DNA of 64,000 bases from a virus (lineage: Duplodnaviria > Caudoviricetes): the IMG/VR virus record IMGVR_UViG_3300034073_002120. One strand, given 5' to 3'. Every line of letters begins with the position of its first letter. The first letter of the stretch is position 1. The notes under the pieces were generated by a model that was not told where the DNA came from, ran no database searches, and was given only the letters and a program-made list of their open reading frames with translations. Both the position numbers and the translations under genes were made by a program. Of the stretch, positions 7,873-56,651 are shown one piece after another.

Positions 7873-9491
7873 TACCCAATATATGCGTTTAATTCGTATT
7901 TACCATTACCCATACCATATACTTGGATATGTAATTGTTTTCTTTGTTCCTTACCACCTTTACTCAATTCAATTGAGAATCTATTAGTTTTACCATCGGA
8001 TGGTTTTTTTGGACCTAACCCAATTTTTTGAGCAGTTTCTTCTTTATCATAATCGAACCCACTTTTGTTAGCCCAATCTAATGCTGAATCAATTGCCGAT
8101 GTGTATGAGTTATGGTATATTGGAAACTTTGCTTCGTTGATAGTAGATTCTAACACTACTACTGCAAGTTCTTTTTTATCAGATGGATGGATACTTGCAG
8201 GAGTTTGTTTACCAAATATAGTCACATTAACTCCATCAGTTCCAATACTATGAACTTTATTTAAATATCTTTTTGCATTTTGATGTAATTCATCATTACT
8301 AATCATATCCTTCATTGAACTCTTCTTATCATATTTAAGAATTGTATCACCGATTTTTGCATGTTTTTCGTAATCTGCAAAAGTATTGTATTGTTTTTTA
8401 ATTTTGAAATTTCCGTTTGATAATGTTTTTAATTCATTAACGGATTCACCTCTTAATTTTCCTAAATGTTTAAGAGCATCCTTTTCGTTTTTCTTAAAGT
8501 AATCTTCAACTTCTTTCTTTGTATCAAATGATAATTGACCTTTACCTTTCTTCACATCATCTACCCAAAATGAATCAGCATCTCTATCGAATTCATAATA
8601 ACCGATAAGATTATTATTTGATAATACCTTACCATCTTTAGCAACTACTGATTCAGTTTTTATTCCGTGATTTTTTCTTACATTTGAAAGGGATTGTAAT
8701 GCGTTTTTAAGAGTTTGTTGTAATTCGTTTCTTTTTACTGCATCTTTTTGTGCAGAAATCTTTGCTCTTAAAACTCTGATTCTATCATTTAATTTTTGAA
8801 TTCTATCACCCTCTACCGATTCACCAATTCTCAATTCATCTTCTACTTGTAGGATTTCTTCATAATCCATATCTTTAAGATAATCAATTACTTTATTACG
8901 ACTTGCATTTGGATTTTTACAAACTGCGGTTGCTACTTTTTTTTTAGTAAATGAACCACCATGGTCATATGCTCTTAAAATGTTTTTGAAATGAACATCA
9001 TTAACACTCATTTCATTTACATTTTCTCTAAAAAATTCATCTTTACCATCTATTGCTGCTGCTTTAGCTGCAGCTGCATCTCTCCTTTTTTCGGGTGATG
9101 CATTTTGAAGATATTTTTCAATATAATGTGCTTGTTTTTTTATTAATTCTTGATATAATTTAACATATTCATCTCTGGTAAGCAATTTATTCTTTAATAA
9201 TTGTACTATCAAAGCAGGTTGTTTACTACGAGTTCTAACATCCATTTGAATAGTACCAGTTAATCTTGCAAAGTCATTTGCAACATATACTCTATGTCCT
9301 AATGAGTTACCAGCTAATTTTGTAATCGGTTCTTTAAGATATGCATTAGCTAAATCTAAGATTTCTTCTGGTGTGATATGTTTATCAGTATATGATTTTT
9401 TACCAAATGCATATGTTGCTTCACTTAATGATTGTTTGAATGATTCTCTAACAATTCCTCTTACTATTTCTTTTACTTGTACTTCGTTCAT
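7872..9491 (-). CDS. Large modular hypothetical protein; possible processed internal head protein
   Basis: 539 aa with segments delimited by RENVNE, IGESVE, KTESVV, RGESVNE and LESTINE. Confidence 0.55.
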   Translation of the reverse strand: MNEVQVKEIVRGIVRESFKQSLSEATYAFGKKSYTDKHITPEEILDLANAYLKEPITKLAGNSLGHRVYVANDFARLTGTIQMDVRTRSKQPALIVQLLKNKLLTRDEYVKLYQELIKKQAHYIEKYLQNASPEKRRDAAAAKAAAIDGKDEFFRENVNEMSVNDVHFKNILRAYDHGGSFTKKKVATAVCKNPNASRNKVIDYLKDMDYEEILQVEDELRIGESVEGDRIQKLNDRIRVLRAKISAQKDAVKRNELQQTLKNALQSLSNVRKNHGIKTESVVAKDGKVLSNNNLIGYYEFDRDADSFWVDDVKKGKGQLSFDTKKEVEDYFKKNEKDALKHLGKLRGESVNELKTLSNGNFKIKKQYNTFADYEKHAKIGDTILKYDKKSSMKDMISNDELHQNAKRYLNKVHSIGTDGVNVTIFGKQTPASIHPSDKKELAVVVLESTINEAKFPIYHNSYTSAIDSALDWANKSGFDYDKEETAQKIGLGPKKPSDGKTNRFSIELSKGGKEQRKQLHIQVYGMGNGKYELNAYIG

Positions 9492-34472: not shown

Positions 34473-34504
34473 CAAATATACGAAAAATATATGATATTTC
34501 CAAA
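34473..34504 (-). promoter_or_regulatory. Bacteroidota primary-sigma promoter
   Basis: Minus strand TTTG-N20-TATATTTG. Confidence 0.75.
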
Positions 34505-37725: not shown

Positions 37726-37757
37726 CAAATATACGAAATATATTCCATATTACCAAA
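37726..37757 (-). promoter_or_regulatory. Bacteroidota primary-sigma promoter
   Basis: Minus strand TTTG-N20-TATATTTG. Confidence 0.75.
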
Positions 37758-40924: not shown

Positions 40925-40956
40925 CAAAGATACAAAATATTTTTGAAATTACCAAA
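40925..40956 (-). promoter_or_regulatory. Bacteroidota primary-sigma promoter upstream of groL
   Basis: Minus strand TTTG-N20-TATCTTTG. Confidence 0.8.
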
Positions 40957-47033: not shown

Positions 47034-47065
47034 CAAAGATACGAATAATTTTTGAATTATCCAAA
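47034..47065 (-). promoter_or_regulatory. Bacteroidota primary-sigma promoter upstream of the clamp gene
   Basis: Minus strand TTTG-N20-TATCTTTG. Confidence 0.8.
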
Positions 47066-49927: not shown

Positions 49928-50875
49928 TTATGTAAATTTTAATATAGTGTTTTGTTTGGATATTTCAAATATTTCTTTACCCTTTTCATTCATATCAATT
50001 AAGGTATAAAATCGATTCGTATTTAAACATGCTCTACCTAATGTACCACTACCTGCAAATATATCCAAACAATTTGAGTTTTCGTTTGAATATAAATTTA
50101 CAATTCTTTCTAATAATGCTACTGGTTTTTGAGTAGCATAATCAAGTTTTTCGTTCATTTGTATCGTACTAATATCATTCCAGACATCTTTTAGTGGAAT
50201 CCCACCACTTTCATGTAAATAGCGTTTTATTCTTGGTATTCCTGCAGAATTATATTCCAATCTATTAGAATTATGTAATTCTTGCATTTTTTCAACGGAA
50301 ACCCACCATTGTTTCATATGACCGTTCCATTCATATCTCAAATTAGGTCTTTGTATTACATTAGGTTGTGAATTTACGGCAGCAGATGTGGTATATTTAC
50401 CATTTGAATCTTCTTTTGCTTTTTTTACATAATCAAGATTATATGGTAATAAAATTCTATTAAAAATAGCTTTATTTTTATTTTTAGAATAAATTAATAA
50501 TACATCATGTTGTCTCATTAATTTATTTTTAACTGATTTTTGATTTGAGGTAATCCATATCAATTCATTTCTAAAATTTTTTATACCAAAAATGGAATCT
50601 AATAAAATTTTAACATAATGTGATGCGATAGAATCAATATGGACTATTATATTACCAGATTCAGATAATTTTAAATATATTTCTTGTAATCTAGGTTTTA
50701 AAAAATCTAAAAAATGTTGCATACTTTCAAATGAATCTCCGAAATCACCAAAATCTCTGCCAGTATTATATGGAGGGTCTATGTAACATAAATCATAAGT
50801 ATGTGGTATATTTTTAAGTATTTCTAAATTATCACCAATTAAATATTGATTAATATATTCTATATTATTTTTCAT
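49928..50875 (-). CDS. Site-specific DNA amino-methyltransferase (beta class, DPPY before FxGxG)
   Basis: GDNL, DLCYIDPPYNTG, YATQKPVALLERI, LDIFAGSGT. Likely start is the ATG at 50875. Confidence 0.9.
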   Translation of the reverse strand: MKNNIEYINQYLIGDNLEILKNIPHTYDLCYIDPPYNTGRDFGDFGDSFESMQHFLDFLKPRLQEIYLKLSESGNIIVHIDSIASHYVKILLDSIFGIKNFRNELIWITSNQKSVKNKLMRQHDVLLIYSKNKNKAIFNRILLPYNLDYVKKAKEDSNGKYTTSAAVNSQPNVIQRPNLRYEWNGHMKQWWVSVEKMQELHNSNRLEYNSAGIPRIKRYLHESGGIPLKDVWNDISTIQMNEKLDYATQKPVALLERIVNLYSNENSNCLDIFAGSGTLGRACLNTNRFYTLIDMNEKGKEIFEISKQNTILKFT

Positions 50876-51446
50876 TTTTTTGTTTGTATTCAGTTTCCAA
50901 TACCTCAATTGCTTTACCAACATATTTTTCCCATATTTTTTTAGGGACACGTGGTAATAAATATTTTGGATTTTTAGGGTCTATCAAAGCAGATTCAGGT
51001 ATAGCAATATATTGCCATTTTTGTATATTTAAATATTCATTAATATCAGGTTTTGAAAAAACATAAACATCGGCCTCACCTGCAGAATATCTTACATGTC
51101 CAGTATCTGAACTAAATTCATTTTTTTGTGATTTTCTACGAGTTTGTTCAAGATGTAATGTATTTGCTCTTAATTTTGATTGTATTTTTAATAAATTATC
51201 AGTTGTAATTAAATCATATCCAGATGCGTTTGAATCCGAACTAAAATCGTTTCGTTTAACTACATTTAAATTTGTATTCTCATTAATCCAATCACACTGT
51301 ATATGTTCATTAGGGTCAGCAAATAATTTACCTAAATCACGTAATTCAATATTTTTTGCCAAATCCTCTTGAGATAACCATAGATAATATACACTTGGTT
51401 CATTTAATTTTAAATAGTTTAGAACTTCATTTTTAGTAGGTATCAT
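50865..51446 (-). CDS. Putative restriction-endonuclease-like nuclease
   Basis: SGYDL....KIQSK resembles a PD-(D/E)xK variant (D...QxK). It overlaps the MTase start by 11 nt. Confidence 0.45.
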   Translation of the reverse strand: MIPTKNEVLNYLKLNEPSVYYLWLSQEDLAKNIELRDLGKLFADPNEHIQCDWINENTNLNVVKRNDFSSDSNASGYDLITTDNLLKIQSKLRANTLHLEQTRRKSQKNEFSSDTGHVRYSAGEADVYVFSKPDINEYLNIQKWQYIAIPESALIDPKNPKYLLPRVPKKIWEKYVGKAIEVLETEYKQKNEK

Positions 51447-51573: not shown

Positions 51574-51870
51574 TTATGAATCCAAATCTGGAAACTCTTG
51601 TTCTGCTAATTCCTTACCTTCCTCAATTAGTAGGGTGATATAACGAAATGCTGCTAGACACCCACTATTAAATCCATGTTGCCAATCACCATCTTCATAT
51701 AATTTCTCCATTTCTTCTGGGTATTTCTCCGTAATTCGTTGGATATTTTCCCTCACCCCCTTTACATCGATATTATTGGGGTTACTTCTTGCATACCAAA
51801 CTAAATCAAAGTATTTTTCTTCTTTTTCATTTAGTTCAATCATTAAGTTTTGAAAATCTTCCGTTGTCAT
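51574..51870 (-). CDS. Hypothetical protein
   Basis: 98-aa acidic ORF with DWQHGFNSGCLA. Confidence 0.6.
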   Translation of the reverse strand: MTTEDFQNLMIELNEKEEKYFDLVWYARSNPNNIDVKGVRENIQRITEKYPEEMEKLYEDGDWQHGFNSGCLAAFRYITLLIEEGKELAEQEFPDLDS

Positions 51871-51881
51871 ATTATATTTTT

Positions 51882-52721
51882 TTAAAATTTGTAAATTCCA
51901 CCCACATTCCAGAATAAAATAGTACCCTCAATTTGGTCTATATTTTCTTCTAACCATTTCCATTGTTTTATATCCCAAAATTGGTTACAAGGGAATGGGG
52001 CTGAATATCCTTCTATTCTATCCTCAAAAAGATACTCCGATTTTCGTATGTTTATGGGAATTGGAATACCACTTTTTTTAAGGGTCTTTTTGATTGAACT
52101 TTCAGATGATACACAAGTTGTCCAAACCTTCTTTTTAACATCAGGAAAAAACTCTTTAAGTTCTTCTCTATAATATCCTCTCACAAGACCGGATAGGGTT
52201 ACTCCACTACCAGATGATACTACTAAATTATCAAAATGTGCAAATGGTTGAATTCTTTCTGCAAGATAATCTTTGTAAAAATCGTGGTCAAACGCATAAG
52301 GTAGCATTTGCCAACCATTTTCTCTTGCTTGACCTCTAAGTGAATTATACATAATCTGCATCATATTAGGTCTGATTGGATTTAGATGTGTTTTTGGATA
52401 CATCTCTTTAATCAAACCCAAATACTCTTGCGATATTTTTTTAGAATCTGGATGTGATACATAAAATTCAATATCTAATTCTTCACATATTGCTGCAAGT
52501 GCCCATCCAGTCCAACTGCCATCTACCGAAAGGTGGGTTAGTGGTTTTGAAGGGTCTACATATTTTTTAACCAATTCATATAATGCTGCTATCTTACCCC
52601 ACGGCGGTAATGTTATACCATCACCCATCAAATCATCTCTTTTTACCCAAACCTCTCTTCCTTTAATGTGATAAAGTTCTAAGGGAGTATCTTCATTTAA
52701 TCCTTTTAATCTTACATCCAT
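51882..52721 (-). CDS. Fold-type-II PLP-dependent enzyme (ACC deaminase / D-cysteine desulfhydrase-like, divergent)
   Basis: TPLE...VWVKRDDL...PPWGKI (candidate Schiff-base Lys); VVSSGSGVT phosphate loop. Confidence 0.7.
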   Translation of the reverse strand: MDVRLKGLNEDTPLELYHIKGREVWVKRDDLMGDGITLPPWGKIAALYELVKKYVDPSKPLTHLSVDGSWTGWALAAICEELDIEFYVSHPDSKKISQEYLGLIKEMYPKTHLNPIRPNMMQIMYNSLRGQARENGWQMLPYAFDHDFYKDYLAERIQPFAHFDNLVVSSGSGVTLSGLVRGYYREELKEFFPDVKKKVWTTCVSSESSIKKTLKKSGIPIPINIRKSEYLFEDRIEGYSAPFPCNQFWDIKQWKWLEENIDQIEGTILFWNVGGIYKF

Positions 52722-54217
52722 TTTTGAAATCCTCCTCCATTTGATACTAATTCTCCTTTCATATTTCGGTGGGAGAACCCGTGAATTTTTTCGAAATTAT
52801 CACCGATTACATTTATCATCTTTTTTCTTTTTTTGAAATTGATGTTAGGGTCATTTAAAATAATTTCTTCAATATATTGTTTAAAATTTGTTCCTTTTTG
52901 GAATGCTCGTTTCTCTTGGTCTAATATCTCATCTGGTAACTTACCTCTAAATCCATCTGCAAGTGGTAATTTCCATTGTCCACCTTTACACAAATACTCA
53001 TCGGTAAGATTCGTAGTATAATTTAGAAAATCAGTATCAAAGAATGGACATCTTAATTCGATTGTTCCATAATTCATAAAGATTGTATTGCCTCTTAGTA
53101 AGTTTCCGTAATATTGTTTTTCAAATAATTTCTTACGAACATCACTCCAATCAGGTTTCTTACTAAACATACGGAAAGTTCCATATGAACCATAACTTTC
53201 ATCACTACCCTCACCACTAAATGCTACTTTGATTCCATCCAACGCCATTTGTTCTGCGATAAATGATTGTAGAATACCAACCTCCATTTGAACGGTCGAT
53301 GGATATTCGATTACTCTAATCGAATCTAAGAAACGTTGTTTGATGATTTCATCATTTTTGGGAACAAATACTTCAACCAATTCTACTCCCAAATACTTTG
53401 CACACACTCTTGCTTTTTGTAAATCTTTTGATGTTTCATCAAATGCAATTGTGTATGCTTTTAAGTTAGGGATTCGTTGGGATAGAAGATAAGTAATTAC
53501 AGCAGAATCAATACCACCACTAAGTGATGTTGCAATTGGTACATCGGATAATAATCTCTTATCTACTGCTCTTTCTAATAATTTGAATGTAGTTTCTGCT
53601 ACCTCTTCATGTGATGTAACCTTTGTTGGTTCTGATGAAAATTGAAAATAAAAGTTTTCGTTTATTGTAATCTTATCAGTATCCAAATCAATTTCAACCA
53701 AACTATTTTTAGGTACAAATTTAATTTCGGATGTTTTATGTTGTGTAGTGATTGATTTTAATTCACTTGCAACTATATAATTGTTTGAATTGTAAATATA
53801 AAGTGGTAATTTACCTACCCAATCTCTCGATAATAATAATTTGTTATTATCATAAATAATGAATGAAAACATACCATCTAACCTCTTCAATTCACCCTCT
53901 TTATATAAGAAAAGAATGATTTCAGAATCCGAATTTGATTTAAAGGTATAACCTCTTTCTTCGTATTCTTTACGCAATTGAGGATAATTCCATATCTCAC
54001 CATTTACTACTAATTGAATACCATCAAATTCCATCGGTTGATTACCTAATGGTGATGTATCGTTGATTGATAAACGATTGTGACCTAATATGATATGTTT
54101 ATCACCATATTGGAATTCTCTAATTCCTCTATTATCTCTTCCGCGATGTTCTATCGCTTCCAACATTTCATTTACTTCATCTCTTTTATATCCTATGGTT
54201 GCTACGATTCCACACAT
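52712..54217 (-). CDS. Asparagine-synthase-like (AsnB) glutamine amidotransferase / ATP pyrophosphatase
   Basis: MCGI (Ntn Cys), HRG, GHNRLSIND, QPM, NGEIWNY, SDSE, SLSGGIDS, SGEGSDE, ELRCPFFD. Confidence 0.9.
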   Translation of the reverse strand: MCGIVATIGYKRDEVNEMLEAIEHRGRDNRGIREFQYGDKHIILGHNRLSINDTSPLGNQPMEFDGIQLVVNGEIWNYPQLRKEYEERGYTFKSNSDSEIILFLYKEGELKRLDGMFSFIIYDNNKLLLSRDWVGKLPLYIYNSNNYIVASELKSITTQHKTSEIKFVPKNSLVEIDLDTDKITINENFYFQFSSEPTKVTSHEEVAETTFKLLERAVDKRLLSDVPIATSLSGGIDSAVITYLLSQRIPNLKAYTIAFDETSKDLQKARVCAKYLGVELVEVFVPKNDEIIKQRFLDSIRVIEYPSTVQMEVGILQSFIAEQMALDGIKVAFSGEGSDESYGSYGTFRMFSKKPDWSDVRKKLFEKQYYGNLLRGNTIFMNYGTIELRCPFFDTDFLNYTTNLTDEYLCKGGQWKLPLADGFRGKLPDEILDQEKRAFQKGTNFKQYIEEIILNDPNINFKKRKKMINVIGDNFEKIHGFSHRNMKGELVSNGGGFQKWM

Positions 54218-54218
54218 A

Positions 54219-54917
54219 TTATCTATTTAATACTTCTAATAACTTATGAGTTTTTTTAGTTTCATCATTCATTTTACCGATATGACAAGAACAAGCTAAA
54301 ACTGATACTTTTTCTAATTCCATATCACTTTCTTTTGCTAAGAACTTACCCATCTCTACTAATGCAGTATAATCTGCATAACCTGATTTAGATACTCTAT
54401 TTGAACGAATGATTGATGTTAGGTAGATTTTACCATTACGAGGTTTAATATCGATTGCTAACATACAAGGTTGTGAATACGGATTTCGTGCATCTCTACT
54501 CGGGTCAAAGATAATCAATTCACATCTTTTAACTGCTTTACCAGTCTTTAAGATTTTGATTACATTCTCTACCTGATTGAAAGTTCCTTGCCACGAAACC
54601 ATTCTACCCCAATATGAATCGTGCCATTTATCTTTGATGAATTTATATTCTAACCCTTCCTCTGCTTGAAAGAATGGAGAATCCGAAACAAATGGTTGTG
54701 GTTCTAAGAATGTTACGGTCTTTGCGTAATCAATTCTATCATCACCCATAATCTCTCTAAAATGAGGGTCAAACCAATCATCAGATTCAAACTTTGTGAT
54801 TTCGGTCATCACATTTAATTCTTCGGTTAAATCACCTACTTTTACTCCGTTTTGGATAAGATGTTTAGATACTTTTACCCATGCATCGCCAGGAGATGTT
54901 GCTTCTATTACTGTCAT
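54219..54917 (-). CDS. Divergent thymidylate-synthase-fold enzyme (dCMP hydroxymethylase-like)
   Basis: YWGR, NQVENVI..LK, catalytic QPC, RSNRVSKSGYADY, CHI. Confidence 0.8.
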   Translation of the reverse strand: MTVIEATSPGDAWVKVSKHLIQNGVKVGDLTEELNVMTEITKFESDDWFDPHFREIMGDDRIDYAKTVTFLEPQPFVSDSPFFQAEEGLEYKFIKDKWHDSYWGRMVSWQGTFNQVENVIKILKTGKAVKRCELIIFDPSRDARNPYSQPCMLAIDIKPRNGKIYLTSIIRSNRVSKSGYADYTALVEMGKFLAKESDMELEKVSVLACSCHIGKMNDETKKTHKLLEVLNR

Positions 54918-54928
54918 ATTATTTAATT

Positions 54929-56161
54929 TTATAATTTACGAAAAATCCATATCGGTTCACAAAACGTTTTATCTTTTGCTTCTTCGTTCTTTTTCAGTTC
55001 TTCTTCGGAATATCTTTCTTCATCACCCTCTATAATCATTCCTGCCCCTGCAGAACCCGGTCTTTTCGCCATTTCCATACCCAAACATCCCTCGTAATGT
55101 GCACCTTCTAGAGTGGAAATAAAATCGTTCATAGGATTAGTGATTTCTTGTTGACCTTTACCATCACCTTTTGAGGATGCATATACATCTGCAATGTTCA
55201 CTGCTAAGTAACCACCTTTCTTAATAGTTGGCCATACATTAGCAATAGTTTTATGTAAGAAATTTTTATTCCAATCATCAATTGTTTTATATCGTATCCA
55301 ACTTTGAGTATCATCATATGAATACCTTTCTACGTTGAAATATGGTGGCGAACTGAATACAATATCAAAGTATTCGTTATACTCACTCAAATCCAAATCT
55401 TCTGCTGGTGATTCATAAAATGTTGATTTCTTTTCAGTTTCAAAGAATCCATTATTCTTTTCATAGAAATCCGCTTGTTGTCTATAAATTGGATGATTTT
55501 CTTTACGAGGGTCAATACCTACATAATGTTCTCCGTATTCTGATGCATAAAATCCACATAATCTATCACCCCATCCAGCTGAAATATCTAATACATTCTT
55601 TGCTTGAACGAAATCATATAATGCCTTTGCAACGTTTGGTTTAAATTGGGAACAAATGTATTTTCGCAAAGATAAACAAGTTCGTAATGTAGTATTACTA
55701 ACTTCATCGAATTTTAGAGTGTACATACCACCCATAAGTGAGAACATAAAATCAGGATTATTCCAAGTTCTATACGGCCCAGGTGAAACTGTGCCATCTA
55801 CACTCCATCGATTTGCTTGTTGAAAATAATTTGAGGCAGGATTACCAGTGTTTAATCTTCTAACGAATTGTTGTTTACCTTGAAACTCAAATGGATATCG
55901 AGATTCAGATGCCTTTCGTGGCACCCATGCTCCTTCGGTAAATAATTCATGCCAACGAATACCTTTTAGTTTAAGATATTCATTTCTTGCTTCTTCTTCG
56001 GAAATTGGAGCATATGGGATTTCGTATGTTGCTGCAACTTTTGCAAGAGATTCTTTTACATCTTCTCTATCGAAAGTTTTCTTAATATACTCCCATTCCT
56101 CATTACCGATAAAGAGATACGGAGTCATTCCGTAAAACTTATCAAAGTATTCTAAATACAT
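54929..56161 (-). CDS. SAM-dependent amino-methyltransferase-like protein (paralog-like of 44646..46283)
   Basis: LDISAGWGDRL, GIDP, DIVFSSPPYFNVERYS, VNIADV. Confidence 0.75.
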   Translation of the reverse strand: MYLEYFDKFYGMTPYLFIGNEEWEYIKKTFDREDVKESLAKVAATYEIPYAPISEEEARNEYLKLKGIRWHELFTEGAWVPRKASESRYPFEFQGKQQFVRRLNTGNPASNYFQQANRWSVDGTVSPGPYRTWNNPDFMFSLMGGMYTLKFDEVSNTTLRTCLSLRKYICSQFKPNVAKALYDFVQAKNVLDISAGWGDRLCGFYASEYGEHYVGIDPRKENHPIYRQQADFYEKNNGFFETEKKSTFYESPAEDLDLSEYNEYFDIVFSSPPYFNVERYSYDDTQSWIRYKTIDDWNKNFLHKTIANVWPTIKKGGYLAVNIADVYASSKGDGKGQQEITNPMNDFISTLEGAHYEGCLGMEMAKRPGSAGAGMIIEGDEERYSEEELKKNEEAKDKTFCEPIWIFRKL

Positions 56162-56174
56162 AACCTTTTATATT

Positions 56175-56414
56175 TTATAATTTTTTTAATGGGACAAGTT
56201 TACCATCAACTATTTTATGAGGAACTCCATCTCTAATTATAAATTTAGGAGCTTTACTCATATCAATTCCTTCTTTACGCAATTCGTTTTTAATTTCCTT
56301 TTTACGAATTTCTTCTTCTCGTTTTGAAAACCATCTTTTAGATTTTTCACTACCTTCTTTTGGTAAAGATAAATTATGTTTCTTAAAACTTTTATTTTTT
56401 TTAATATCACCCAT
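56175..56414 (-). CDS. Small basic hypothetical protein
   Basis: 79-aa Lys-rich ORF directly downstream of a promoter. Confidence 0.55.
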   Translation of the reverse strand: MGDIKKNKSFKKHNLSLPKEGSEKSKRWFSKREEEIRKKEIKNELRKEGIDMSKAPKFIIRDGVPHKIVDGKLVPLKKL

Positions 56415-56433
56415 TTTATTCTTTTATATTTTA

Positions 56434-56465
56434 CAAAGATACGAAAAATATTTCGTATTTCCAAA
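56434..56465 (-). promoter_or_regulatory. Bacteroidota primary-sigma promoter heading the candidate modification operon
   Basis: Minus strand TTTG-N20-TATCTTTG. Confidence 0.8.
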
Positions 56466-56651
56466 TTAAATATGTGTCCATGTGTGACGTTTTACAATTT
56501 CCTCAACATTCCACTTACTAACTTTGAAATTTCTAGCAATAACGTTAGTAGAGAACCCTTGTTTAAAGAGTTCTCTTATTATCCTAACTTGTTCGTTTGT
56601 AAGTTTTGCCTTTGGATGATTTTCACCACACCTTTTATTTGATACACTCAT
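56466..56651 (-). CDS. Stand-alone HTH protein resembling the C-terminal DNA-binding domain of HNH endonucleases
   Basis: GENHPKAKLTNEQVRIIR......IARNFKVS...VEEIV...TWTHI. Confidence 0.7.
   Translation of the reverse strand: MSVSNKRCGENHPKAKLTNEQVRIIRELFKQGFSTNVIARNFKVSKWNVEEIVKRHTWTHI

Follow-up and report, generated by a model that had tools for sequence, protein, structure and literature searches.

A candidate DNA base hypermodification operon in a phage genome, combining thymidylate synthase-fold, AsnB-like, PLP and SPPY-motif enzymes

In Synechococcus phage S-B43, the CmoA/CmoX/CmoY system leads through 5-carboxymethylcytosine to its glycine amide (PMC12783734). A second strategy, the thymidine hypermodification of phages M6 and ViI, relies on a 5-hmdU kinase, an amino-acid:DNA transferase, a radical SAM isomerase and a PLP decarboxylase, gp52/gp226 (PMC8989533). 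M6 gp52 is the PLP-dependent decarboxylase of C-alpha-glycinylthymidine in DNA and works on amino acid-nucleobase conjugates in DNA (PMC8989533).

In the biosynthesis of diphthamide and of microcin C, a side chain of the amino-acid type is put in place first, and neutralisation of its carboxylate follows. For diphthamide this is done by the PP-loop amidase Dph6 after amine methylation by Dph5, and for microcin C by the PLP decarboxylase MccE after MccD, an aminocarboxypropyl transferase that works with the PLP decarboxylase. Here, we compare these systems with a four-enzyme cassette found in a 64,000-nucleotide stretch of DNA from a large, uncultured phage of fresh water (Caudoviricetes; IMG/VR record IMGVR_UViG_3300034073_002120), hereafter the window.

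Layout, promoter and conservation of the cassette

The cassette forms part of the replication and nucleotide module and is preceded by a phage promoter motif that recurs in the window (Table 1). Gaps of 13 nt (h79 to the SPPY gene), 11 nt (SPPY to TS-fold) and 1 nt (TS-fold to AsnB-like) are followed by a 10-nt overlap between the AsnB-like and PLP genes and an 11-nt gap before h98. This spacing, together with the loci of relatives, indicates that the cassette genes are translationally coupled. A domain search places Trx, NrdA and NrdB upstream and a family-B polymerase downstream, the latter separated from the cassette by a 193-aa ORF and an N6_N4 MTase (49928-51446).

Table 1. Features of the cassette and its flanks in the window
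Feature	Position	Strand	Evidence or status
Promoter-like element TTTG-N20-TATCTTTG	56434..56465	(-)	Sequence read and pattern search
h79, 79-aa basic ORF between promoter and SPPY gene	56175..56414	(-)	Accessory; no family match
SPPY protein, 410 aa	54929..56161	(-)	ORF, AF2 model, motifs, homologues
TS-fold protein, 232 aa	54219..54917	(-)	Sub-cutoff Pfam, TIGR03283, alignments
AsnB-like protein, 501 aa	52712..54217	(-)	Pfam, TIGR01536, active-site residues
PLP enzyme, 279 aa	51882..52721	(-)	phrog_7093, M6 gp52 homology, AF2 fold
h98, 98-aa ORF downstream of PLP gene	51574..51870	(-)	Accessory; no family match

The promoter-like element, which contains an internal inverted repeat, we take, by its resemblance to the consensus, to be a promoter of the Bacteroidota -33/-7 type. 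A generic sigma-70 scan did not detect it. A pattern search of the window returned 11 matches against 4.5 expected. Five near-identical copies of an extended motif are found at 34473, 37726, 40925, 47034 and 56434, all on the coding strand. Because the next copy after the cassette promoter comes only at 47034, the transcribed operon likely extends into the polymerase.

The gene set was followed through 58 distinct IMG/VR versions, down to 43-50% identity. The TS-fold, ligase and PLP genes are contiguous in all 50 informative loci, and the SPPY protein lies inside the locus in 28 of 29, the one exception placing it just past the locus end. Unrelated phage backbones also carry the module, next to PolA/RecA, RecA or a clamp loader. 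Its gene order shifts while its adjacency is kept, and its surroundings are always genes of replication and recombination (Nrd, PolB, PolA, RecA, clamp loader). In distant lineages, the TS-fold, SPPY and ligase genes are constant and the variable member is either the PLP enzyme or a B12-type radical SAM enzyme; one lineage carries a fusion of the TS-fold and radical SAM proteins. Some relatives at 90% identity have an extra P-loop and GNAT gene inserted between the SPPY and TS-fold genes, which, by analogy, resembles the combinatorial tailoring of hypermodification clusters. Database searches found no cultured phage with the cassette.

Neither of the flanking small ORFs gave a match in family searches. 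At this position h79 is missing from relatives 90-99% identical, being present only in two loci (L007 and L105) and elsewhere in the locus, while h98 had zero tblastn matches among 108 related loci, and in close relatives the polymerase directly follows the PLP gene. Absent from relatives 90-99% identical, h98 and h79 are not conserved members of the cassette.

A preliminary description, made from the sequence alone, had reported this run of minus-strand genes behind a host-type promoter, and its ORFs, gaps and overlaps held in full, with the promoter now recognized as a recurring Bacteroidota-type motif. Its placement of the run between nrdAB/thioredoxin and the DNA polymerase also held, but with the two intervening genes noted above. 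Synteny conservation, a test it had named, was passed. It had counted the small leading ORF and the trailing hypothetical gene in the run; both ORFs are real, but their membership in a conserved unit failed.

Sequence and structural relatives of the four enzymes

The TS-fold protein scores 20.5 bits against Pfam Thymidylat_synt, under the gathering cut-off of 24.3, and matches the methanogen-type TS family TIGR03283 with an E-value of 1e-18. Its best solved-structure match is the CMP hydroxymethylase MilA (5b6d), with an ungapped alignment. Family alignments, including an hhalign alignment to the phages' own canonical ThyA family, show conservation of the catalytic Cys151, Arg171-Ser172 and Asp182, the last at the position of ThyA Asn177 and a cytosine-type residue; Asp182, Cys151 and Arg171 are shared by all close family members examined. 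At the position of ThyA Asp169 the protein has Arg (Arg or Ala in the family), at that of Tyr209 it has Gly, and the C-terminal tail is absent. Four complete relatives encode a separate canonical ThyA with Asn177 and Asp169, which makes the paralogue dispensable for dTMP synthesis. Among relatives of this short TS type there are fusions to pterin, corrinoid or B12-radical-SAM modules, and the family itself includes one member joined to a B12 radical SAM domain.

The AsnB-like protein has strong Pfam matches to GATase_7 (3.5e-31) and Asn_synthase (9.5e-40), matches structure 1ct9 with an E-value of 7e-40, and, at 289.5 bits, passes the NCBIfam asparagine synthase threshold (TIGR01536, cut-off 267.1). 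It carries an N-terminal Cys nucleophile, glutaminase residues, an SGGIDS PP-loop and SGEGSDE, and the glutaminase and synthetase active-site residues are all invariant among 16 homologues. We infer from sequence, without activity data, an enzyme of the glutamine-dependent amidotransferase/ATP-pyrophosphatase type. Its nearest homologue in a cultured phage is gp124 of Streptomyces phage TurkishDelight (33% identity over 91% of the length), which lies in a ParB/MTase/amidotransferase/MTase cluster of the CmoX/CmoA 5-carboxymethylcytosine type. In some variant cassettes the place of the AsnB-like protein is taken by an SpCmoY homologue (23-30% identity), a ligase without the glutaminase domain. 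By homology and context, with no chemistry shown, the ligase groups with CmoY-type amide ligases of modified cytosine (PMC12783734).

The PLP protein matches the Pfam PALP domain weakly, and its AF2 model (pLDDT 89.7) is of fold-type II, the nearest Foldseek neighbours being D-cysteine desulfhydrase and an ACC-deaminase homologue. In sequence comparisons no metabolic enzyme comes nearly as close to it as M6 gp52: it matches phrog_7093 (E 2.5e-25) and, by tblastn, phage M6 (E 9e-13; PPM6_gp052/YP_001294560), and the pairwise alignment with gp52 runs over the full length at 26% identity (E 5e-26). The two proteins have in common a C-terminal motif, SAPFPCN.F.D.K.WKWL, and K43 aligns with gp52 K36. 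K43 and a GSGVT loop are invariant in the family alignment, and Lys43 is the predicted Schiff-base lysine.

The SPPY protein combines an N-terminal helical domain with a class I SAM-dependent transferase domain (AF2 pLDDT 88), with LDISAGWGDR as motif I and FSSPPY as motif IV. Its structural neighbours, Trm11, TrmN and O-MTases at VIA Z 15-16, single out no best family. Full-length AFDB and BFVD matches are auto-named cytosine-N4 DNA MTase, and Atlas neighbours bear PF01555. Across 19 homologues, D192, G196, G198 and SPPY, among others, are invariant, and the gene is translationally coupled to that of the TS-fold protein in two other clades. Sequence and model together suggest an amino-methyltransferase type resembling N4-cytosine MTases.

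The enzyme assignments of the preliminary description largely stand. The divergent TS-fold gene held, with its cytosine preference supported by the Asp at the Asn177 position, and the AsnB-like gene held on domains and motifs, its amidation role fitting the CmoY-type relatives; no chemistry is shown for either. The fold-II PLP assignment and the class I fold and motifs of the SPPY SAM methyltransferase held too, the substrate and transferred group of the latter being inferred only. The beta-elimination or replacement chemistry suggested for the PLP enzyme is not supported as stated: it remains one option only, the nearest characterised relative being a decarboxylase.

Proposed function and rival explanations

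We favor, with moderate confidence, the reading that the cassette is a self-contained module hypermodifying cytosine C5 in the phage's own DNA; this is inferred from homology and context, and no modified base has been observed. The end product, not identified, would probably bear a carboxamide and an amino group and may be methylated. Shielding of phage DNA from host nucleases is the likely, and likewise inferred, purpose. The preliminary description had already proposed that an amidated side chain of amino-acid origin is assembled by these four enzymes on a pyrimidine that is probably cytosine; comparative evidence alone supports this, with no chemistry.

Under this reading, the short TS-fold paralogue would bind a cytosine nucleotide (Asp at the Asn177 position), and its Cys would attack C6, activating C5 as in all TS-fold enzymes and starting a carbon substituent. 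The carbon unit may come from a partner protein, because the paralogue has neither the folate-contacting Asp169 nor a C-terminal lid, and relatives carry fused pterin, corrinoid or B12-radical-SAM modules. Second, the M6 gp52-like PLP enzyme would make or reshape an alpha-amino-acid moiety on C5, with a B12-type radical SAM enzyme in its place in other lineages. The AsnB/CmoY-type ligase would then adenylate a side-chain carboxylate and form the amide with glutamine-derived ammonia, or with another amine as donor in glutaminase-less variants. Finally, with SAM as the donor, the SPPY enzyme would transfer a group to an amino or amide nitrogen of base or side chain. Whether the enzymes act at the nucleotide or the DNA level, and on the way to what product, is inferred only.

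Several observations weigh against this model. A decarboxylase of the gp52 type and an amidating ligase would both need the same single carboxylate; this conflict, which the model leaves unresolved, would call for a second carboxylate on the side chain or for a PLP reaction other than decarboxylation. The AsnB-like protein lies above the NCBIfam asparagine synthase cut-off. TS-fold enzymes are not known to act on anything but mononucleotides; neither dCTPase nor dCMP deaminase is consistently present in complete relatives. Since several canonical phosphate, sugar and folate contacts are missing, the TS-fold protein might not be a nucleotide C5-transferase at all. For the SPPY protein, plain N4-cytosine methylation of DNA is a possible alternative role.

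One rival, which we consider unlikely, holds that a cytosine nucleotide is modified and virion DNA is not the target, the outcome being a free metabolite (mildiomycin-like, or an anti-defence or signalling nucleotide) or modified RNA, such as tRNA. In its favor, MilA, the best structure match of the TS-fold protein, is a nucleoside-antibiotic enzyme, the Tyr contacting the deoxyribose 3'-OH is absent, SPPY domain neighbours include tRNA m2G methyltransferases, and dCTPase and dCMP deaminase are inconsistent in occurrence. However, the characterised enzymes most closely related to the PLP enzyme and to the ligases modify bases within DNA (PMC8989533, PMC12783734), the module always lies beside replication and recombination genes, and full-length SPPY relatives are DNA-MTase-like.

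Also doubtful is a sub-variant of the main reading with a different division of labour, in which the SPPY enzyme, resembling CmoX or the 3-amino-3-carboxypropyl transferases MccD and TYW2, would take a carboxyalkyl group off SAM, or off a derivative of it, and attach it to a cytosine pre-functionalised by the TS-fold enzyme (5-hydroxy or 5-hydroxymethyl), the ligase then amidating and the PLP enzyme trimming. Supporting it are the constant SPPY, TS-fold and ligase trio beside interchangeable PLP and radical SAM enzymes, a giant-virus SPPY-fold homologue inside a protein that carries the annotation glutathione synthase, which is an amide ligase, the top Foldseek PDB match to MccD, with CmoB also among the matches, and TS homologues that make 5-hydroxy-dCMP (PMC13326640). 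Against it, Foldseek and VIA scores are flat over dozens of class I methyltransferases, with MccD and CmoB not singled out; five complete relatives yielded no CmoA; at the ThyA 169 position stands Arg/Ala, not the Asn that is reportedly diagnostic of 5-hydroxy-dCMP synthases (PMC13326640); and SPPY is the classical methyl-transfer motif for exocyclic amines.

Least plausible, and very unlikely, is a set of unlinked auxiliary genes (asparagine synthetase, serine/threonine/D-cysteine deaminase, spare TS, N4-cytosine DNA MTase) adjacent by shared descent, which draws on the TIGR01536 score, JGI's annotation of all AsnB-like homologues as asparagine synthase, the PLP fold nearest D-cysteine desulfhydrase and the auto-naming of the SPPY family as cytosine-N4 MTase, but is opposed by the joint movement of the four genes into unrelated backbones, reordered yet adjacent, by the swap of AsnB for glutaminase-less CmoY-like ligases hardly usable as asparagine synthetases, by the PLP protein being much nearer M6 gp52 than metabolic enzymes, by the canonical ThyA already in these phages, and by the TS-radical SAM fusion.

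Comparison with described systems

The likeness to diphthamide and microcin C is one of logic only: the cassette has analogues of all the enzyme types involved, with no specific homology established, and the targets there are protein and peptide-nucleotide, not DNA.

With the dCMP hydroxymethylase T4 gp42, the RB69 and DLP3 5-hydroxy-dCMP synthases (PMC13326640) and MilA (5b6d), the TS-fold protein has in common the fold, the catalytic Cys, the Arg-Ser phosphate contacts and the cytosine-selecting Asp at the Asn177 position. It differs in being much shorter (232 aa) and grouping with methanogen-type TS, in having Arg/Ala at position 169 where hydroxymethylases have Asp and hydroxylases Asn, in lacking Tyr209 and the C-terminal lid, with no evident Arg21 equivalent, and in the fusion of one family member to a B12 radical SAM domain.

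Like the M6 and ViI pathways, the cassette uses an upstream TS-fold enzyme, radical SAM and PLP enzymes occur in both systems as shapers of the side chain, and the PLP enzyme of the cassette is a full-length gp52 homologue with an aligned Schiff-base lysine and a family-specific C-terminal motif. In contrast, its target is probably cytosine (Asp182), not uracil/thymine; single-sequence searches, weak as negatives, found no homologue of the 5-hmU DNA kinase gp54 or the amino-acid:DNA transferase gp51 in five complete relatives; the radical SAM enzyme of the variants is of the B12-binding type and replaces the PLP enzyme, not standing alongside it; and the cassette also has an amidating ligase and an SPPY transferase.

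The S-B43 Cmo system and TurkishDelight gp123-125, a predicted glutaminase-bearing CmoY cluster, feature, as is inferred for the cassette, an AsnB-family ATP-dependent amide ligase acting on a C5-cytosine carboxylate, and in both the Cmo clusters and the cassettes ligases occur with and without a glutaminase domain. Unlike them, the cassette in the window has neither CmoA nor a C5-cytosine methyltransferase homologue, and therefore the carboxyl-bearing group would have to arise through different chemistry and is probably something other than carboxymethyl; TS-fold, PLP/radical SAM and amino-MTase-type SPPY enzymes stand in their place. The initial remark that no characterised pathway with this combination was known held, while its parts resemble known systems: three of the four enzymes are related to known phage base-decorating enzymes, in a combination not previously described.

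Genomic setting and conservation of the cassette

The cassette comprises four minus-strand genes encoding an SPPY protein, a thymidylate-synthase-fold (TS-fold) protein, an AsnB-like ligase and a PLP protein, with a 79-aa ORF on one side and a 98-aa ORF on the other. The positions assigned to these six ORFs in the preliminary description held exactly, and their junctions run, in gene order, as gaps of 13 nt (79-aa ORF to SPPY), 11 nt (SPPY to TS) and 1 nt (TS to AsnB-like), a 10-nt overlap (AsnB-like to PLP) and a further 11-nt gap (PLP to 98-aa ORF). A domain search of the window ORFs placed thioredoxin, NrdA and NrdB on the upstream side and, downstream, a 193-aa ORF belonging to no known family, an N6_N4 DNA methyltransferase and then the family-B polymerase. 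Together, the 98-aa ORF, the 193-aa ORF and the methyltransferase account for about 2 kb inserted between PLP and polymerase genes; in relatives 90-99% identical the PLP gene abuts the polymerase, and comparison of related loci found neither these three genes nor the 79-aa ORF in them. A homologue of the methyltransferase (42%) occurs only in the metagenome locus L032, at another location, and the insertion could be a mobile methyltransferase or restriction-modification-like unit.

A host-type promoter had been proposed at the head of the run, where the sequence reads TTTG-N20-TATCTTTG; a generic sigma-70 scan missed this element. The pattern has 11 matches against 4.5 expected, and five nearly identical 32-nt extended motifs, TTTGG.AAT...TTTCGTAT(A/C)TTTG, all lie on the coding strand. 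The copy at 56434 contains an inverted repeat between its -33 and -7 elements, as, judging by their sequence, the other four probably do. On sequence alone, the five copies appear to represent a single regulated promoter class of the phage. Their consensus corresponds to that of Bacteroidota housekeeping promoters, which suggests Bacteroidota as the host phylum. Next to the cassette, a small helix-turn-helix protein, possibly a regulator, is kept directly upstream in most jumbo-phage relatives (48-100% identity), and not in other clades.

Megablast against 50,697 cultured-phage records did not find the cassette in cultured phages, and the closest isolate by polymerase, Microcystis phage Mel-JY01 (PolB 51%), carries no cassette between its thioredoxin and PolB. 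IMG/VR holds 58 distinct versions of the TS gene. In all 50 versions with enough downstream sequence, the ligase gene lies immediately beside TS and the PLP gene comes next, the ligase being AsnB-type in 46 and a 308-aa PP-loop protein that lacks the glutaminase domain in 4. A SPPY homologue is present in 28 of 29 wide-flank loci, and the remaining locus has one just past its end; the gene can precede TS or follow either PLP or the polymerase, and overlaps the TS start in two other clades. Conserved synteny across related phages, whose failure the preliminary description had listed as grounds for refutation, thus held. Nine studies have metagenomes, from subsurface, soil and freshwater, that contain the window stretch, and the ligase family comprises more than 120 clusters at 90% identity, each at least 78% identical to the window protein and all annotated asparagine synthase; by these counts the cassette is abundant.

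A profile search of 1.84 billion representatives resolved the close TS-like family into about 13 clusters at 50% identity, whose members in other phage backbones keep the same gene theme with substitutions. Among these loci, L129 carries SPPY, TS, PLP and a CmoY-like ligase; L122 carries SPPY, TS, AsnB and a B12-type radical SAM gene, and no PLP gene; L126 carries PolA, an SPPY-like protein, a glutaminase-less ligase, a weak ATP-grasp-like protein, TS fused to a B12 radical SAM enzyme, and RecA; in L128, TS is followed by a radical SAM gene and in L127 by AsnB. These contents therefore define a constant set of TS-like protein, SPPY-like protein and AsnB/CmoY-type ligase, with the variable position filled either by a PLP enzyme resembling gp52 or by a radical SAM enzyme of the B12 type.

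Several loci carry additional or altered genes. A 390-aa gene with P-loop and GNAT regions is present in close relatives at about 90% identity, L003, L002 and L050 among them, and missing from the window; its arrangement is TmcA-like, and its product could acetylate an amine of the modified base. The fused TS-AsnB ORF of L032 was rejected as Rosetta-stone evidence, since the essential N-terminal Cys of the glutaminase is lost and the TS tail truncated, and it is likely a deletion or assembly artefact rather than a functional fusion. In L122, transposon-type and putative homing endonuclease genes lie between cassette genes and a nearby RecA carries inteins, and in L008 the TS and AsnB genes are separated by about 1.1 kb that contains small unknown ORFs. 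The cassette appears to act as an insertion hot spot for selfish elements.

Coordinates of the cassette, its flanks and features of related loci (L numbers, IMG/VR or metagenome loci)
Feature	Location	Strand	Details
98-aa ORF	window 51574-51870	-	
PLP protein	window 51882-52721	-	
AsnB-like ligase	window 52712-54217	-	
TS-fold protein	window 54219-54917	-	
SPPY protein	window 54929-56161	-	
79-aa ORF	window 56175-56414	-	
193-aa ORF and N6_N4 DNA methyltransferase	window 49928-51446	-	PF01555, E 1e-44; ORF overlaps methyltransferase start
Helix-turn-helix protein	window 56466-56651	-	61 aa; weak HTH_38 / YlxM-like
Promoter-like motif copies	window 34473-34504, 37726-37757, 40925-40956, 47034-47065, 56434-56465	-	pattern match
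Natural TS-like / B12-type radical SAM fusion (P0012)	L126:7088-9118	+	TS domain 47% identical to window's
Fused TS-AsnB ORF	L032:7353-9482	+	710 aa; TS-like minus last ~15 residues joined to AsnB-like minus first ~12 including catalytic Cys
Extra 390-aa gene between SPPY and TS	L003:2938-4110	+	P-loop NTPase N-terminus, weak GNAT C-terminus (Acetyltransf_1, 21.7 bits)
IS605-type TnpB gene and DUF723/PvuRts1I-N-like putative homing endonuclease	L122:6766-7944 and 8825-9361	+	

Enzymes encoded by the cassette

The TS-fold protein scores 20.5 bits against PF00303, under the gathering score of 24.3, and its homologues encoded by G005 and G003 reach 28.0 and 26.8 bits; it belongs to this thymidylate synthase/dCMP hydroxymethylase family at fold level only. 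Methanogen-type short thymidylate synthases are its best grouping (TIGR03283, 67.5 bits, cut-off 174.6). In family alignments, Pro150-Cys151, at the position of ThyA Cys146, and Arg171 are invariant in 19 of 19 diverse members, and Ser172, which together with Arg171 corresponds to the ThyA Arg166-Ser167 phosphate contacts, is kept in the close family. The protein aligns without gaps to the CMP hydroxymethylase MilA (5b6d), with Pro-Cys151 and Arg171-Ser172 matched. Eleven residues after Arg171, Asp182 is invariant in a 17-sequence alignment and present in the family proteins P0003-P0014; since dUMP enzymes carry Asn here and dCMP/CMP enzymes carry Asp (PMC13326640, PMC8670742), we read Asp182 as cytosine-selecting. 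The ThyA Asp169 position is Arg (Ala in the homologues of L108 and L109), the ThyA His207-x-Tyr209 motif reads H-I-G, and the C-terminal lid is missing, the protein ending about 20 residues past the His. An hhalign comparison of the family with canonical ThyA was set aside (probability 14%, 3-residue register shift near the RS motif), the MilA alignment being preferred because in it the conserved Arg stays matched and the spacing remains 11 residues.

Fusions to pterin-binding, MtrA-like corrinoid or B12 radical SAM modules recur among short TS-like relatives; they fit the loss of the protein's own folate contacts and suggest that a partner passes the carbon unit to the TS-fold enzyme. Among 185,579 prokaryote species genomes, a pattern scan found no relative of the TS-like protein, weak evidence of absence given the limits of the pattern.

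The AsnB-like protein joins a complete class II glutamine amidotransferase and a PP-loop synthetase in one chain, in which alignment to 1ct9 identifies the N-terminal Cys nucleophile, the glutaminase residues, the SGGIDS PP-loop and SGEGSDE; C2, R48, N72-G73-E74, D97, S233-G-G-x-D237-S238 and S334-E340 are invariant among 16 homologues. It scores 289.5 bits against TIGR01536 (asparagine synthase, NCBIfam; cut-off 267.1) and 254.8 bits against PRK09431 (AsnB; cut-off 499). Genomic context argues against conversion of free aspartate to asparagine as its physiological role, its activity being inferred without an assay. Its nearest cultured-phage relative, Streptomyces phage TurkishDelight gp124 (33% identity, 91% coverage, E 5e-57), has two methyltransferases and two ParB proteins as gene neighbours, the architecture of CmoX/CmoA clusters. 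At such loci another large CmoY cluster has been reported, which carries a glutamine-hydrolysing domain and is predicted to amidate 5-carboxymethylcytosine using ammonia (PMC12783734). The glutaminase-less ligases of variant cassettes are homologous to SpCmoY (L100 ligase, E 3e-12; L129 ligase, 30% identity, E 3e-26), whose gene lies between CmoA and CmoX in phage S-B43 and which joins glycine to 5-carboxymethylcytosine in DNA (PMC12783734).

The PLP protein is confidently modelled (pLDDT 89.7) as fold-type II, nearest to D-cysteine desulfhydrase and to the ACC-deaminase homologue 1j0a, the latter also the only match, and a marginal one, in a PDB profile search with the family. Lys43 and a GSGVT phosphate loop are invariant among homologues. 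Among cultured phages, its relatives are limited to genes labelled 'threonine dehydratase' in Pseudomonas phage M6 and allied phages and to related genes of Bordetella, Sphaerotilus and Stenotrophomonas phages. The M6 match is gp52 (YP_001294560), which aligns over its full length (278 columns, 26% identity, E 5e-26), places its Lys36 at Lys43 and shares the C-terminal motif SAPFPCN.F.D.K.WKWL; the PLP protein also matches phrog_7093 (E 2.5e-25). gp52 is a PLP-dependent decarboxylase that converts C-alpha-glycinylthymidine in DNA into 5-aminoethyl-dU, with Lys36 predicted to form the internal aldimine (PMC8989533).

The SPPY protein is modelled (pLDDT 88) as a class I SAM-dependent transferase with an N-terminal helical domain. 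It carries motif I (LDISAGWGDR) and a motif IV (FSSPPY) of the (S/D/N)PP(Y/F) type, for which the PROSITE N4 signature is TSPPY, with D192, G196, G198 and S271-P-P-Y274 invariant, in the order I then IV, unlike the beta-class PF01555 archetype. PF01555, the family of N4-cytosine and N6-adenine DNA amino-methyltransferases, does not match the window protein, and homologues from L054 (clade 2) and L108 score 29.9 and 23.6 bits against a cut-off of 26.7. Among predicted structures, the full-length relatives come from bacteria, archaea and giant viruses and bear the automatic name cytosine-N4 DNA methyltransferase. A PDB profile search with the family gave no match, and the solved-structure neighbours do not tell apart methyltransferases that act on DNA, RNA, protein amides or small molecules; because these neighbours are not separated, no specific transferase type was assigned, and methylation of DNA would be an inference from homology only. 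MccD (top in Foldseek) and the top VIA matches were likewise rejected as identities, not being separated from dozens of other class I methyltransferases. In BFVD, the 699-aa giant-virus (Satyrvirus) protein A0A3G5AD75, annotated glutathione synthase, contains a full-length structural match, hinting at a recurrent pairing of the SPPY transferase family with amide-forming ligases outside phages.

Five complete IMG/VR relatives (169-289 kb) stood in for the whole genome of the window phage in searches for missing functions. None of the five gave a TIGR00740 match for CmoA, ThyX was not found in them, and no MazG-type dCTPase or dCMP deaminase was consistently present. Homologues of M6 gp51 (amino-acid:DNA transferase) and gp54 (5-hmU DNA kinase) were not found in them either, a weak negative because the searches were single-sequence. 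Four of the five have a canonical ThyA that retains Asn177, Asp169 and His-x-Tyr, and the divergent TS-fold paralogue is therefore not needed for dTMP. From these absences we infer that the cassette itself must carry out whatever step installs the side chain.

Proposed pathway, rival explanations and known systems

The preliminary description had inferred that the four genes jointly make an amidated, amino-acid-derived side chain on a pyrimidine, probably cytosine, and the cassette is indeed probably a phage pyrimidine hypermodification cluster, with a real chance of new chemistry. In the mechanism we consider most likely, the TS-fold paralogue would activate C5 of a cytosine nucleotide via its conserved Cys; the PLP enzyme, whose place a radical SAM enzyme takes in other lineages, would help to build or shape a carbon side chain of alpha-amino-acid character; the ligase would adenylate a carboxylate of this side chain and amidate it with glutamine-derived ammonia; and the SPPY enzyme would alkylate an amino or amide nitrogen. 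Everything here beyond gene identity and synteny is inferred: no modified base has been observed and no isolate exists, only contigs. One difficulty is that a gp52-type decarboxylase and an amidating ligase would each use up the carboxylate. The side chain might have two carboxylates, or the PLP reaction might differ here, for example a beta-replacement forming the C5-CH2-CH(NH2)-COOH skeleton, the same that gp52 binds; we cannot choose between these, nor decide whether the early steps would occur on the mononucleotide or on DNA.

A bolder reading, unlikely and yet not excluded by the evidence, takes the TS-fold protein as a folate-independent C5-activating module handing a cytosine carbanion to a partner that supplies the carbon electrophile, a tryptophan-synthase-like PLP aminoacrylate here or, in other lineages, a B12 radical SAM enzyme either fused to the TS-fold domain or adjacent to it. 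The product would be a C-C-linked amino-acid side chain, such as 5-(2-amino-2-carboxyethyl)cytosine, formed in one step without the kinase/transferase route of thymidine hypermodifications, which the ligase would turn into an amino-acid amide and the SPPY enzyme would N-methylate. If true, this would be a cationic, unprecedented DNA base from an unprecedented enzyme partnership. Another division of labour, in which the SPPY enzyme installs a carboxyalkyl group, seems improbable but is a live sub-variant. A non-DNA target, free nucleotide or RNA, is also doubtful and remains possible: it is favoured by the resemblance to MilA, by the absence of the Tyr that contacts deoxyribose and by the lack of enzymes that manipulate nucleotide pools, whereas the DNA-acting relatives and the replication-gene context speak against it. 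That these are unlinked metabolic genes is very unlikely, given that the module is mobile, that its ligase is swapped in variants and that a fusion of TS with radical SAM exists.

Phage DNA hypermodifications govern resistance to restriction enzymes and CRISPR nucleases and have provided tools for epigenetic sequencing and enzymology. Those derived from amino acids are almost all on thymine, made via a kinase and transferase route, and no amidated cytosine pathway is known besides CmoA/X/Y, described in 2025. The present gene combination was not described in the literature searched, which did not cover the 2013 comparative-genomics paper of Iyer et al. If the preferred hypermodification pathway were confirmed, it would mean a new modified cytosine, a new route for attaching carbon side chains to pyrimidines, and a concrete function for thousands of genes annotated 'asparagine synthase', 'threonine dehydratase' and 'thymidylate synthase'.

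Among known systems, the cassette ligases share sequence homology with the CmoY-type ligases of 5-carboxymethylcytosine, but their association in Cmo clusters with CmoA (Cx-SAM synthase) and CmoX (C5-MTase homologue) is not seen here: CmoA had no match in the five complete relatives, and domain searches and locus comparison revealed no C5-MTase within the cassette. With M6 gp52, which with ViI gp226 represents the PLP-dependent decarboxylases of amino acid-nucleobase conjugates, the PLP protein shares full-length homology and the Schiff-base lysine, its own decarboxylase activity being at most inferred; in contrast to M6 and ViI, single-sequence searches of the complete relatives of the window phage detected no 5-hmU DNA kinase or amino-acid:DNA transferase (aGPT-Pplase). 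Without the known 'installing' enzymes of either system, the cassette recombines relatives of the enzymes of both with an unusual TS-fold protein and a protein of amino-MTase type.
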